This document shows, one piece after another, positions 28,364-32,782 of a DNA stretch of 64,000 bases. The stretch lies in contig CAXXLZ010000002.1 in assembly GCA_963675595.2 (NCBI GenBank), forward strand, positions 288,001 to 352,000, in the 5' to 3' direction. The DNA comes from Thermodesulfobacteriota bacterium (GTDB taxonomy: Bacteria > Desulfobacterota > Desulfarculia > JACQYL01). A program made the translations under genes and the position numbers. Position 1 is the stretch's first letter. Each line of letters starts with the position of its first letter. The notes beneath the pieces were generated by a model. That model ran no database searches. It saw only the letters and a list, made by a program, of their open reading frames with translations, and was not told the DNA's origin.

Positions 28364-28479
28364 ATTTCGGGAGAAAAGAGTGGGGGCTTGGCCGGTGTTC
28401 CGTGCCTGCCGACGTCGGGGATATTGTGAGTCCTTCGTTGGGGGTCTATAATGCGGGCCGACACTTAAGGAGGAACGGG

Positions 28480-30516
28480 ATGCGTTTTTTCAAGAAGAGC
28501 GAACCGGAGGAGCCCCGGATCGATTCCGACTCGTCGGAAGAACTCGTAGTTCTTTCGCGGCGGGTTTCGGAGTCTCCCATGCCTCCCCTGGTTCGGGACG
28601 CCTCCATGAAGGAAATGGAGCGCCTCACCAAGATTCATCCGGACTCGAGCGAATACACCATCGGGATCACGTACCTGGCCTATCTGCTCTCCATGCCCTG
28701 GCGGACCCGCACCGAAGACAATCTGGACATCCGCAGAGCCCGGGTTATCCTCGACGAGGACCACTTCGCCCTTCCCGAGATCAAGGAACGCATCCTGGAA
28801 TACCTGGCGGTTCGCAAACTGAGAACGGAAAGGCGTCCGAGTATTTTGGTGGTGGAAGACGAAGAGATTACCCGAAAGAACCTGGTCCGCGTTCTGAGCA
28901 AAGAAGGATACGAGACACAGGCCGCTCCCAACGGCATAGAAGCCCTATCCTGCCTGCGTGAGCATTCCTTCGATGTGATGATCACCGACCTGAAAATGGA
29001 CAAACTGGACGGCATCGAACTGCTCAAAAGAACCAAGGAGACCCATCCCCACGTCTCCGTAATCATTATTACGGGGTACGCCACGGTGGACTCCGCTGTG
29101 GAAGCCATGAAGGTGGGGGCCGCCGACTACATCGCCAAACCGTTCCAGCTGGACGACGTGAGGTCGGCGGTCCGAGGCGTGCTGGAACAGAAACGTTTCG
29201 ACCACGAGATGCAGGGGCCCGTACTTTGCTTTGTGGGCCCTCCCGGAACGGGTAAGACCTCTTTGGGGCGTTCCGTGGCACGGGCTTTGGAGCGGCGCTT
29301 CGTTCGAATATCCCTCGCCGGAATGAAGGACGAGGCCGAGATTCGGGGACACCGGCGGACCTACTCCGGCGCCCTCCCCGGCAGGATCATCCAGGAGATT
29401 CGTCGGGTGGGCTGTGTGAACCCCGTTTTCATGATGGACGAAGTGGACAAGATCGGTCGGGAATTCAAAGGCGATCCCGCGGCCGCCCTGCTCGAGGTCC
29501 TGGACCCGGAGCAGAATAGCCGATTCATGGACTACTATCTGGACGTTCCCTTCGATCTGTCCCAGGTCATGTTCATTCTAACGGCCAATATTACGGACCC
29601 CATTCCTTCTCCCCTCCTGGACCGCATGGAGATGCTGCCCTTCTCCGGCTACACGGACGAAGAAAAAGTAGAGATCGCCGCCAGGTATTTGGTCCCCAGA
29701 CAAGTGTCCGAAAACGGTCTCGAAGACTTTCCTCCCACATTCAAACAGGAAGCGCTGCAACGCATCGTTCGGGAGTACACCAGGGAGGCGGGCCTCAGGG
29801 AATTGGAGAGACAGATCGCCGCCGTCTGCAGAAGAATCGCCCGCGATTTCGTCCAAATGGACACCGAACGCCGCTCTTTATCCGTCGAAGGCGAAGACGT
29901 TCACAATTATTTGGGTCCCAGGAGGTATTACGAGGAAATCGCCGAGGCCAAAGATCGTGTGGGCGTGGCCACCGGATTGGTGAGGACGGAATCCGGCGGC
30001 AGCATCATGTTCATCGAAGCGACCACCATGAAAGGCCGGGGAAGCCTGATCCTTACCGGTTCCCTGGGTGAGGTCATGAGAGAGTCCGCCCAGGCCGCGC
30101 TCAGTCATATCCGGAGCAACGCGGAACGCTTCGGCATTTCGGAGGATCGTTTTCTCGAAAACGACGTACACGTGCATGTCCCGGCAGGTGCGGTACCCAA
30201 AGACGGACCTTCCGCCGGCCTGACCATCGCCGTCGCCCTCCTCTCCGTTTTCACGGGCTTGCCCGCCAGCAGGAAAGTGGCCTGCACCGGTGAAATCACC
30301 CTCACCGGACGCATTCTTCCAGTGGCGGGGCTTCGAGAGAAGATACTGGCGGCGAAAAGGGCCAAGGTGGAAACCGTGATTCTGCCCGAACGAAACCGGA
30401 CCGACCTGGAAATGCTTCCGGAGCGCATCCGGACGGGTATCCGATTCCAACCCATCGACTCTTTGGAAGAAGCCATGAAAGAGTCGATTCCCGGAATCCG
30501 TCTCAATTCCGTCTGA
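28480..30516 (+). CDS. lon: Lon (S16) protease lacking the N-domain, with an inserted response-regulator receiver domain
   Basis: LDEDHF..KERILEYLAVRKL-[REC]-GPVLCFVGPPGTGKT, HRRTYSGALPG, MMDEVDK, PKDGPSAG, GLREKILAA. Confidence 0.92.
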   Translation: MRFFKKSEPEEPRIDSDSSEELVVLSRRVSESPMPPLVRDASMKEMERLTKIHPDSSEYTIGITYLAYLLSMPWRTRTEDNLDIRRARVILDEDHFALPEIKERILEYLAVRKLRTERRPSILVVEDEEITRKNLVRVLSKEGYETQAAPNGIEALSCLREHSFDVMITDLKMDKLDGIELLKRTKETHPHVSVIIITGYATVDSAVEAMKVGAADYIAKPFQLDDVRSAVRGVLEQKRFDHEMQGPVLCFVGPPGTGKTSLGRSVARALERRFVRISLAGMKDEAEIRGHRRTYSGALPGRIIQEIRRVGCVNPVFMMDEVDKIGREFKGDPAAALLEVLDPEQNSRFMDYYLDVPFDLSQVMFILTANITDPIPSPLLDRMEMLPFSGYTDEEKVEIAARYLVPRQVSENGLEDFPPTFKQEALQRIVREYTREAGLRELERQIAAVCRRIARDFVQMDTERRSLSVEGEDVHNYLGPRRYYEEIAEAKDRVGVATGLVRTESGGSIMFIEATTMKGRGSLILTGSLGEVMRESAQAALSHIRSNAERFGISEDRFLENDVHVHVPAGAVPKDGPSAGLTIAVALLSVFTGLPASRKVACTGEITLTGRILPVAGLREKILAAKRAKVETVILPERNRTDLEMLPERIRTGIRFQPIDSLEEAMKESIPGIRLNSV

Positions 30517-30741
30517 ACTTCATCCGTGATCCGATCCCACTCCGCGTCACGGGGAAACTCCCCTCGCCGGCCCTCCGGATGACCGTCAACATTTGAGTTC
30601 GCCTCCCTGTAGGACCCGGGTCGGAATCCGGCCCTAGACATAATGGCTGCACGTGCAGGAAAGTAGGCCCGTCTCCTGCGTTGTTGGGTTATGGTGCGAG
30701 TAATCAGCACGCCCATCGAACCAACACCAAGGAGGCAGGCC

Positions 30742-31848
30742 ATGACCGATTTTATCTTTGTTGGATTGGATGTTCACCAGAAATCGATAGACGTTGCCTT
30801 GGCCGAAGGGTCCCGTGATGGAGAAGTCCGATCTTACGGCAAGATCAACGGGGAGCCGTCGGATGTGGATCGATTGTTTCGCCGGCTGGGCTACAAGAAG
30901 GATCGGCTTCGGGTGGTCTACGAAGCCGGCCCATGCGGCTACGTTCTTTGCCGGCACCTGCATGCCCGGGGAATCCATTGCACGGTCGTGGCGCCCTCGC
31001 TGACGCCCCGACGAGCCGGCGATCGGATCAAGACGGATCGACGGGATGCGGTCACCCTGGCTCGTCTTCATCGGGCTGGAGAACTCACGGGGGTGTATGT
31101 TCCCCGTGTGGAGGACGAGGCGATACGGGATTTGACCAGGGCCCGGGAGGATGCCAAGAGCTCGGAGCGAAAGGCCAAACAGCGGCTCAACGCCTTTTTG
31201 CTGCGCCACGGTCGGAAGTACGGCGGGCCGCGGAAGTGGAGCCGGGCCCACCGGAGGTGGCTTTCGGACCAGTCGTTTGAACACCCGGCCCAGCAGATCG
31301 TTTTTCAGGAGTATATCGACACCATTGAAGAGTGCGAGCGCCGGGTGGCGCGATTGGTGGAGCAGATTGGCGAGCAGGTGGAGCACTGGCCTATGAAACC
31401 GGTCGTGGAGGCCTTCCAATCGATGCGAGGCGTGTCGTTGATCGTGGCCGCCACTGTGGTGGCCGAAGTGGGCGACATGACGCGATTTGATGAGCCCGGG
31501 CAGTTGACGGCGTATCTGGGTTTGGTCCCCTCGGAGAGTTCCAGCGGAGGACGGCGCAAACAAGGAGGCATTACCAAGTCCGGCAACGGACATGCGCGCC
31601 GGGTATTGATCCAGGGGGCCTGGACCTATCGCTATCCGCCCCGAGTGGGCCGCAGGCTGAGGGATCGGCGGGAGGAGGCGCCGTCCGAGGTCTGCAAGAT
31701 CGGCTGGAAGGCCCAGCTGCGTCTGTGCGGCCGGTACCACCGGCTGATGGCCCGGGGTAAGCCGTCGCAAGTGGCCGTCACGGCCATTGCAAGGGAGATG
31801 GCCGCCTTTCTGTGGGCGATCGCCAGAGAGGTTCCCGTTGCCGCTTAG
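30742..31848 (+). CDS. IS110-family DEDD recombinase/transposase
   Basis: VGLDVHQ, YEAGP, KTDRRDA (DEDD), LGLVPSESSSG (catalytic Ser region); AGGAGG RBS. Confidence 0.95.
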   Translation: MTDFIFVGLDVHQKSIDVALAEGSRDGEVRSYGKINGEPSDVDRLFRRLGYKKDRLRVVYEAGPCGYVLCRHLHARGIHCTVVAPSLTPRRAGDRIKTDRRDAVTLARLHRAGELTGVYVPRVEDEAIRDLTRAREDAKSSERKAKQRLNAFLLRHGRKYGGPRKWSRAHRRWLSDQSFEHPAQQIVFQEYIDTIEECERRVARLVEQIGEQVEHWPMKPVVEAFQSMRGVSLIVAATVVAEVGDMTRFDEPGQLTAYLGLVPSESSSGGRRKQGGITKSGNGHARRVLIQGAWTYRYPPRVGRRLRDRREEAPSEVCKIGWKAQLRLCGRYHRLMARGKPSQVAVTAIAREMAAFLWAIAREVPVAA

Positions 31849-31914
31849 CCTCACATCAACACCATATCGTTCGATTTGGAAGGAGGACGGCACTGTAAAA
31901 GGGAAAAACACCGG

Positions 31915-32109
31915 CTTCAACCTGTGAGCAGGGGCGCAACCGCGGTAAGGAGAATCCTCGTGACCTGATAGGAGATCTGGCATCTGCCGAACCCTCGTCT
32001 CTAGAAAGAGGCAGCTCCGCGACGAACCAAGTCCGGCGGTAACCAACCCGCGAATATCAGCATGATCCACCGTCGCTATGCAGGTTCCGCCTCTGTCCGC
32101 AGGTTGAAG
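31915..32109 (+). ncRNA. Putative bridge/seek RNA of the IS110 element
   Basis: 27-bp closing stem 31915-31941/32083-32109 with G-U pairs; two internal-loop hairpins carrying CCTGATAGG (target match) and ATATCAG (circle-junction match). Confidence 0.75.
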
Positions 32110-32187
32110 TTCCATAAATGGTAGCCATACCCCAACGTTACAAGGGGCGGAAGAATTCTGCGCCCTATTGACGTGTGCAGCCATATC

Positions 32188-32343
32188 ATCAGGCTGCAGG
32201 AAAACGCGACTTGCGGCGTTGCGCTTCATCCCTTGTCACTGCGACGTACTCTATGTACGTCTCATTCCTCGGGATTTGCACGCCTTGCATGTCATCGTTT
32301 TTCACCGACCTGTAATAACCGGCCTTTTTCAACGGGCGGATAG
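32188..32343 (+). repeat. MITE-like family A copy, IS110 target (its first bases CT lie at 30634-30635)
   Basis: High similarity to 14857-15015; reconstructed termini CTATC...GATAG. Confidence 0.8.
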
Positions 32344-32782
32344 TGAATCATATCCTCCGTCCGGCCGTCGGCCCGTTTCCATGAGTGATGAACAAGTTGA
32401 TTCGAGGACTCCCAAGGTCCCCATCCGTTTGTTTCGAAACATTTGGGACAACCACCGGCCCCGCCGCCGCCGATATTCGGACTGTCCACATTCCGAACCC
32501 CTTGTCTCACCAGGTATTTCTTCAATCATAAGACACTCTTTCGAAGGCCTCGGTCCGAGAGCATCGTACGGAGGTACGAGGGAAGAAAAGCACGCACAAA
32601 TCCGTTTCGTACTGTCCCGTTTTTTTCTCTTCACTATTTCCCAAAGACGTTGTAGTCTGCAACAATTTGCAACGATCCCACTGCCCGGTTTTTTCGTTTG
32701 ACTTTTGGTCGCACACTCTTTAGACGTTATTACGCGCGTGTGATATTCGTCCTGAAAGACTTCTCCTGCGGAGGAATCCAAT

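Follow-up and report, generated by a model that had tools for sequence, protein, structure and literature searches.

A probable bridge RNA with guide segments that track target and donor DNA in an IS1111-type insertion sequence of a Thermodesulfobacteriota bacterium

We analyzed a 64,000-nucleotide (nt) stretch of DNA from a Thermodesulfobacteriota bacterium (GenBank assembly GCA_963675595.2, contig CAXXLZ010000002.1, positions 288,001 to 352,000 of the forward strand), referred to here as the window. We are highly confident that positions 30636 to 32188 of the window are a complete insertion sequence (IS) of the IS110 family, IS1111 subgroup, with a bridge RNA (seekRNA) encoded at 31915 to 32109. 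An initial annotation, made from the letters of the window, had proposed an IS110/IS1111 element with a two-loop RNA in its 3′ end that matches the element's own target and donor. This identification is supported by covariation in the RNA, by guide segments that change together with their DNA partners across related elements, and by a variant copy, c4, in the same genome. The element and its RNA are the recognition of a known RNA-guided system, with one guide segment reassigned, and not a new system. The parts of the element are as follows.

30636 to 32188, + strand: whole insertion sequence, about 1,552 bp (1.55 kb), with the shared base A at both junctions (A30636 and A32188)
30636 to 30741, + strand: left noncoding end, 106 nt, with the subterminal inverted repeat ATGGCTGCAC at 30643 to 30652 and a −10-like CATAAT at 30639 to 30644
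30742 to 31848, + strand: transposase (recombinase) gene, 368 amino acids (aa), with AAGGAGG 7 nt upstream of the ATG
32168 to 32188, + strand: right terminus, with a −35-like TTGACG at 32168 to 32173, the inverted repeat GTGCAGCCAT at 32175 to 32184, and the extension ATC followed by the shared A

The limits of the element are based on its copies, on empty paralogous repeats, and on a family pattern. A DNA search of the genome found five copies of the 1.55-kb element that are 98 to 100% identical, all five with open transposase frames. When these were aligned with 100 bases of flank, identity started at TAGACATAATGG (T30635) and ended at CCATATCA (A32188), so that the exact common stretch, TAGACAT...CCATATCA, covers 30635 to 32188; the left flanks are mutually unrelated, and the right flanks vary from the first base (T, T, T, A, and G, each then followed by CAG). 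The reconstructed sites are T-A-T-CAGG for the window copy and c2, T-A-T-CAGC for c3, T-A-A-CAGG for c4, and T-A-G-CAGC for c5. There is no multibase target duplication; the A alone is common to both junctions in four of the five copies, and the sites read T-A-n-CAG(G/C). Related elements have matching ends, N-TA-GACATAATGG ... CCATATC-A-N. For the family, the left junction can be written N-T-A-G-ACATAATGG (AGACC... in a second subfamily) and the right junction ...CAT-nnn-A-(G/A)-N.

The guides were compared across relatives of the transposase. A profile built from 29 relatives was scanned over one genome per species and gave 484 relatives, of which the best 80, from several phyla and with 51 to 67% protein identity to the window transposase, were kept. 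Of 81 elements (the window and the 80 relatives), 66 carry four anchor motifs of the RNA downstream of the gene, in the same order, and both ends could be located in 53 of these 66. One element with doubtful ends (L067) was dropped from all guide tests, and elements with an N in a flank were omitted from whichever test needed that flank. Four guide segments can be placed in the window RNA, two in each loop.

31964 to 31972, + strand: top-strand target guide, 5′ strand of loop 1, CCUGAUA (31964 to 31970) then GG, the reverse complement of CC-T-A-T-CAGG
31999 to 32005, + strand: bottom-strand target guide, 3′ strand of loop 1, CUCUAG (31999 to 32004) then A, equal to the left flank plus T-A-G
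32054 to 32061, + strand: donor guide, 3′ strand of loop 2, in which AUAUCAG (32054 to 32060) reproduces the terminal 5 nt of the right end, followed by the shared A and then the left end's first G
32029 to 32035, + strand: donor guide, 5′ strand of loop 2, AAGUCCG, with five of seven Watson-Crick pairs to the left end C-A-G-A-C-A-T

The 9-mer CCTGATAGG, to which the initial annotation had drawn attention, is present at 31964 to 31972, as the reverse complement of the target. A count over both strands of the 64-kb window gives one occurrence, against 0.26 expected, and about 0.001 would be expected for the 340-nt noncoding end; given these low expectations, the single occurrence goes beyond chance. 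Within it, A31968 is the guide base that reads the target base beside the invariant A. In the family, this 5′ strand is a variable stretch ending in (C/U)-U-A, and its reverse complement is T-A-(G/A) followed by the right flank. For 43 distinct guides, from 49 elements with complete flanks, we scored the six flank bases past the two junction bases, with the offset left free. Cognate flanks gave 4.67 matches of 6 and noncognate flanks 3.15 of 6, and none of 10,000 permutations was as high. At the base beside the A, guide and target follow base pairing; the target/guide combinations at 41 placements, from elements whose guide could be placed with at least four of five matches, were G/C in 26, A/U in 7, G/U in 3, T/A in 1 (the window), and other in 4.

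The 3′ strand of loop 1 has two to three variable nucleotides in the family, followed by a conserved UAGA. Among 47 elements, it equals the left flank at position −2 with a frequency of 0.89, compared to 0.51 for noncognate flanks, and at −3 with a frequency of 0.55, compared to 0.32; again, 0 of 10,000 permutations reached these values, and beyond −3 there was no match above background. Where the left junction is AAG (L046, L047, and L049) or GAG (L106), the RNA also has AAG or GAG; L101, also with G-A-G, keeps UAG. Both strands of loop 1 therefore track the flanks (43 to 47 relatives), which is the covariation of loop and insertion site across homologues that had been named at the outset as a check on the identification.

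That leaves the guide segment that had to be reassigned. The initial annotation had matched CCCT (31992 to 31995) to the left flank. These letters are present, but the bottom-strand guide is CUCUAG at 31999 to 32004. CCCT lies inside GAACnCnCG, which is conserved in the family, and its C31994 and U31995 pair with G31974 and A31973 in a covarying stem; in addition, copy c4 changes C31992 without a matching change of the flank. We regard the left-flank match of CCCT as a 4-mer coincidence. A pairing of GG at 31971 to 31972 with two left-flank bases was considered as well; it is also found in L048 and not in most relatives, G31972 is paired in the consensus structure, and we did not count it as guide.

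Variation within the genome bears on the same guides. Copy c4 (C2:4494743-4496368) has 22 private differences between the equivalents of 31779 and 32001 and few elsewhere, and among them are A31968U, in the guide for the top strand, and C32001G, in that for the bottom strand. This copy alone sits at T-A-A-CAGG, and its guide base U31968 reads that A. Of the four copies with A31968, three are at T-A-T-CAG, and one (c5) is at T-A-G. A contig bearing the c4 differences was also found in DNA run X2. The 223-base stretch in c4, which covers the end of the gene and the first half of the RNA, looks like a patch from a more distant relative, with both target guides changed along with it.

The site of c5 (C2:4106339-4107921), CTG-T-A-G-CAGCC, fits a c4-type RNA on both strands (CUGUAG is exact, and there is one G-U pair) and fits the c4 guides better than c5's own; c4 and c5 also have three other variants in common. 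We conjecture that c5 may have been placed by a c4-type RNA. The mismatch between c5 and its site suggests either such action of one copy's RNA on another copy or a later conversion of the RNA region.

In loop 2, the ATATCAG reported by the initial annotation is present at 32054 to 32060 and absent from the integrated ends of the window copy, and it does occur at the right junction of one of the five genomic copies. On this 3′ donor strand, identity to the element's own ends is seven of seven in 43 of 52 elements and six of seven in the other 9, and each of three end types (ATC, GAG, or ACC before the A) comes with matching RNA. The likeness of AAGTCCG to the other donor strand is a more qualified matter: the motif does lie at 32029 to 32035, the family position of the donor guide, but it matches at only five of seven positions and is the weakest of the four guides. 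The same position reaches seven of seven in L102 (UCUGUCU/AGACAGA) and L110 (CUUGUCU/AGACAAG), and because these two relatives have perfect 7-mers there for their own, different left ends, we take the position to be right.

Summed over the source-like samples, contig depth in runs X1 to X3, over window positions 32002 to 32075 and 32150 to 32371, rose several-fold over loop 2, and the increase over the flanking repeat amounted to orders of magnitude. Loop 2-like sequence of other elements is found at many loose contig ends there, which indicates numerous related elements with a common conserved donor loop in the samples.

Both loops are held in a structure that the family conserves.

31915 to 32109 (approximate), + strand: bridge/seek RNA gene, bounded by the closing stem, from the single-sequence fold and the family consensus
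31917 to 31940 with 32084 to 32107, + strand: closing stem, consensus structure
31950 to 31952 (GAG) with 32015 to 32017 (CUC), + strand: outer stem of loop 1, consensus structure
31956 to 31959 (CCUC) with 32008 to 32011 (GAGG), + strand: stem of loop 1, consensus structure
31972 to 31996, + strand: inner stem and hairpin of loop 1, G31972/A31973/G31974 with C31996/U31995/C31994 around GGCA-UC-UGCC
32019 to 32076, + strand: donor-binding loop, with the base stem GCGACG/CGUCGC and a hairpin of GCGG (32036 to 32039) with CCGC (32048 to 32051)

The 195-nt stretch on its own folds at −80.7 kcal/mol (z = −4.29), and none of 200 shuffled sequences was as stable. The closing stem proposed at first (31915 to 31941 with 32083 to 32109) has 25 pairs in this fold, and the consensus keeps 21, all with compensatory changes. 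The proposed GGCA-TC-TGCC hairpin at 31979 to 31988 and the pairing of GCGACG (32019 to 32024) with CGTCGC (32071 to 32076) were recovered as well, and the two-loop architecture as a whole is reproduced by the consensus structure of the family. For this consensus, 59 of 64 distinct RNA sequences were aligned; L081, L095, L102, L110, and L114 were left out for their longer inserts, and the exact duplicates L049 and L111 were excluded. Of 35 pairs predicted by RNAalifold, 34 have compensatory changes. Addition of the base stem of loop 2 and one hairpin pair gave 42 pairs in six helices, 36 of which have changes on both sides. Across these 42 pairs, 90.1% of cells form a standard pair, compared to 73.6% in 500 shuffles and 38 to 47% when the 3′ partners are slid by one to three columns. 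The covariation score is 0.48, compared to 0.19 and 0.10 to 0.16, respectively, and none of the 500 shuffles reached the observed pairing or covariation. In the inner helix of loop 1 (helix 4), 89% of cells are paired and all four pairs are changed on both sides; in the donor-loop helices 5 and 6, 92% and 97% of cells are paired.

The target DNA in the window is the start of a dispersed repeat.

32189 to 32260, + strand: target, the start of a dispersed repeat beginning nCAGGCYGTTGAAAAACGCGATCTGCGGCGTTGCGCTTCATCCCTC..., about 100 copies

BLAST with the repeat to the right of the element yielded 119 genomic hits, and 98 of these extend to the repeat start. A genome search with the element region gave 36 further matches, which cover only the last 60 to 85 bases of the query and thus the dispersed repeat. 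Three of the five IS copies sit at a repeat edge. Empty copies of the repeat are mostly preceded by TAn, often a stop codon, and one unoccupied copy of the flanking repeat reads CCCTAT/CAGGCTG; the empty site CCT/ATCAGG in the initial annotation had been correctly reconstructed. The repeat (window 32189 to 32330, about 100 genomic places) often begins directly after a stop codon, TAA, TAG, or TGA, which is then followed by CAGG. Right flanks of relatives from other phyla read CAG(G/C)CTGTTGAAAAA or similar (L040, L108, L053, L075, and L083), and the transposase family may follow a widespread type of repeat.

Several points weigh against an RNA-guided element that selects its sites in this way. 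The 9-mer CCTATCAGG occurs 48 times in the genome (54.8 expected by composition), and 4 of these occurrences are the guide itself. Almost none of the others carries an insertion, and the empty ones include a site at the edge of the same repeat (C2:378016). With many perfect sites empty, either site choice needs more than top-strand pairing or movement is rare. Two of the five occupied sites are imperfect for the top-strand guide, c5 fully and c3 at one base. The bottom-strand guide has about two programmable bases, and its −2 position is matched in three of the five copies; the 5′ donor guide is imperfect in most relatives as well as here. The ends of relatives were located by patterns that partly presuppose the terminal motifs of the family, and the permutation tests overstate significance somewhat, since the relatives are not independent of each other. 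Rfam returned no matches in 30400 to 32500 at E ≤ 10. Neither a circle junction nor a joint skipping the element is listed among the contigs of four DNA runs (three studies), in which uncovered parts do not count as evidence. Sequence comparison establishes the element limits, the RNA structure, and the tracking of DNA partners by the guides; that the RNA is expressed and bound by the protein, that a circle forms, and how strands are exchanged and the element moves would be as in the tested ISEc11, ISPa11, ISKpn4, and IS621, by analogy.

The alternative that survives best accepts a true guide RNA and holds that the genomic copies are immobile, fixed relics. The many empty perfect sites, including that at C2:378016, would be in keeping with this, as would the finding that one related sample (run X5) carries the element at the same locus. 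However, all five near-identical copies have open frames and intact ends, and contigs in three studies end at the left edge of the element (loose ends at 30633 to 30635) with several different flanks. We consider immobile relics unlikely. The initial description of the element as "intact, potentially reprogrammable" stands in its first part, by the five open frames and the 98 to 100% identity of the copies; that it might be reprogrammable is inferred from relatives tested by others.

A second alternative concerns loop 2, where ATATCAG might act as DNA, either as an internal copy of the terminus bound by the transposase or as the remnant of a former end. In favor of this, the motif is identical to the right end plus core, not complementary to it, and an internal DNA repeat would equally track the terminus across relatives. 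Against this, the motif is always found on the 3′ strand of an internal loop between the covarying helices 5 and 6, and the corresponding position in IS621 is described as a proven RNA guide (PMC11208160). Furthermore, the base that follows the donor guide (C32061 in the window, which equals C32190) matches the first right-flank base past the junction (0.56 versus 0.24 in 50 elements, with 0 of 10,000 permutations as high). Such tracking of a host flank is unexpected for a repeat of the element's end. A second handshake-like base after the donor guide gave no signal (0.20 versus 0.27). That the motif acts as DNA seems to us very improbable.

Hardly credible, finally, is that the 3′ structure is a regulatory or stabilizing part of the transposase transcript (a 3′ untranslated region element, a terminator, or an antisense target) with incidental matches: the lack of a separate promoter between gene and RNA in a simple scan would suit it, and expression and binding of the RNA here are extrapolated from tested relatives, but the strands of loop 1 track right and left flanks that are host DNA, a single-base guide change in c4 is accompanied by the corresponding base at the genomic site of that copy, and an RNA with a purely regulatory role would not have loops that covary with DNA outside the element.

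If the four segments are read as guides, how donor and target meet can be considered at the level of single bases. The donor junction is C-A-G and the preferred target is T-A-T, with only the A in common. Across the family, the donor has G after the A, and the target has at this place the base that pairs with the top-strand guide. In the window, the donor has A-G and the target A-T; the top-strand target guide reads A-T, and the bottom-strand and donor guides read A-G. In 12 relatives, the target has A-A and the donor A-G. An identical core dinucleotide (CT) in donor and target that is paired by four guides, which would be the narrow IS621 type, is not what the window contains. The initial annotation had spoken of a one-base core, shorter than that of IS621. 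The identity common to donor and preferred target is indeed the A, but the core is not shorter than that of IS621 in any unusual sense. In the IS621 core, as described, conservation is almost complete for the T and lower for the C (PMC11208158); since the donor core here is CT on the other strand, with the same pattern of an invariant and a less conserved base, we see no departure from IS621.

In all cases with a mismatch between donor and target (four copies here and 12 relatives), the left junction keeps the donor G and the right junction keeps the target base. The pattern used to find ends required A-G at the left junction; a looser pattern also showed G there. As a tentative explanation, which we hold to be possible and no more probable than that, these junctions may be the trace of a single-strand exchange, involving the strand that is cut first in IS621, beside the invariant base, and completed by replication; in this reading, the base beside the A is chosen by the target guide independently of the donor. 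A two-strand exchange over a two-base core would leave mismatches that segregate both ways. The junction pattern agrees with the "top-strand insertion" route proposed in a 2025 preprint (10.1101/2025.10.25.684509). A one-base crossover region, mismatch repair, or later loss of elements with the target's base at the left end could also give rise to the pattern; elements of this last kind might also escape the end-finding patterns.

How the RNA would be made is suggested by the two termini. When the ends are joined, TTGACG (32168 to 32173) and CATAAT (30639 to 30644) lie 17 nt apart, and 34 of 52 elements have a TTGAC on the right and a NAnnnT hexamer on the left with 16 to 19 nt between them across the junction. 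A simple scan for a separate sigma-70-like promoter between the gene and the RNA found none, a result that carries little weight either way. Junction promoters in circles are described for such elements (PMC11187229, PMC11208160). We imagine that the RNA is probably transcribed together with the transposase gene, likely from a promoter that would be formed only in the excised circle, by TTGACG of the right end and CATAAT of the left end, and that the transposase would then bind the RNA. The top- and bottom-strand target pairings would overlap at T-A, and recombination at the invariant A would put the element at the edge of the dispersed repeat, without target duplication. Contigs of four DNA runs contain the element, and the related sample of run X5 has it at the window locus.

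The assignment to IS110/IS1111 follows from the domains, the catalytic residues, the subterminal repeats, and the longer downstream noncoding end, all of which match the marks described for IS1111 (PMC11187229, PMC11208160). Within the 385-aa reading frame, PF01548 was found at residues 24 to 171 (E = 1.6e-16) and PF02371 at residues 240 to 312 (E = 1.2e-22). D10, E61, D99, D102, S267, and G269 are invariant across 29 aligned relatives of the transposase, and the serine motif GL-P----SG is GLVPSESSSG in the window protein. The subterminal inverted repeats are 10 bp (ATGGCTGCAC at 30643 to 30652 pairs with GTGCAGCCAT at 32175 to 32184), and beyond them are terminal extensions, AGACATA on the left and ATCA on the right, in a layout also found in relatives. 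Noncoding sequence amounts to 340 nt downstream of the gene (31849 to 32188) versus 106 nt upstream (30636 to 30741). The marks given for IS1111 are subterminal repeats of 7 to 17 bp, a downstream noncoding region, and the motif GL-P----S(T)G (PMC11187229), and bridge RNAs are reported as predicted in the right end of 93% of IS1111 elements (PMC11208160). Only in its C-terminal domain does the protein resemble recombinases of solved structure (ISCro4 9t56, E = 2.4e-8; IS621 8wt6, E = 4e-7, residues 199 to 311).

Transposases of this kind are numerous. A protein search gave 7,998 proteins at E ≤ 1e-30 among 8,000 candidates scored, the best 120 being 61 to 100% identical; the relatives are 368 to 372 aa in length. 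None of the 60 nearest genomes had a close copy at E ≤ 1e-40. A metagenome scan with the single protein found one distant locus only (L116, 29% identity), which was not used. Azospirillum plasmids carry relatives at about 60% identity, and these, like relatives on other plasmids, are annotated merely as "IS110 family transposase."

Among the systems with experimental support, the ISEc11, ISPa11, ISKpn4, and ISPst6 group, as described by Siddiquee et al. 2024 (PMC11187229), is similar in many respects: a DEDD transposase with PF02371, subterminal repeats, a long downstream noncoding region, a top-strand match 5′ of the bottom-strand match with both overlapping in the target, a target in repeated, foldable sequence (REP in the case of ISPa11), and a junction promoter as the only one visible. 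The window protein, at 368 aa, is longer than the 330 to 350 aa quoted there for IS1111 transposases, and its target is different. The RNAs of the ISEc11 group were shown by experiment, whereas the window RNA is predicted from sequence, and the two are set side by side here by description, not by sequence (PMC11187229).

IS621, in the accounts of Durrant et al. 2024 (PMC11208160) and Hiraizumi et al. 2024 (PMC11208158), likewise has a target loop and a donor loop, long and short guides that overlap at the core, a handshake-like extra base after the guide, and a junction promoter. It differs in that its RNA comes from the 5′ end, whereas the window RNA is downstream of the gene, at the 3′ end; the order of the guide strands is reversed relative to the gene; and the proteins have only local similarity. 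In addition, the target guide here is set for T while the donor has G, leaving one base in common instead of two. The predicted bridge RNAs of ISCARN28, ISAzs32, and ISPa11 (Durrant et al. 2024, Extended Data Fig. 10) are alike in that a right-end RNA has loops complementary to target, donor, and core.

Upstream of the element, window positions 28402 to 30516 (+ strand) hold a 704-aa reading frame, the C-terminal two thirds of which resemble a Lon-type protease, as judged by eye from the translation. A receiver-like domain of the response-regulator type precedes the Lon-like part, and the stop codon is 119 bases before the IS.

RNA-guided recombinases of the IS110/IS1111 type are under development as programmable DNA-insertion tools. 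The element described here adds a well-documented natural member of a large, mostly environmental subfamily, with an RNA conserved across several phyla, and it allows nucleotide-level placement of the four guides, of the handshake-like base, and of the junction promoter within this subfamily. Specialists may find two details useful: one guide base differs between two genomic copies, each at a matching site, and donor and target need only one base in common at the crossover. Neither changes the general picture. If the single-strand reading of the junctions were true, the natural junctions of this family would record single-strand insertion in their sequence.

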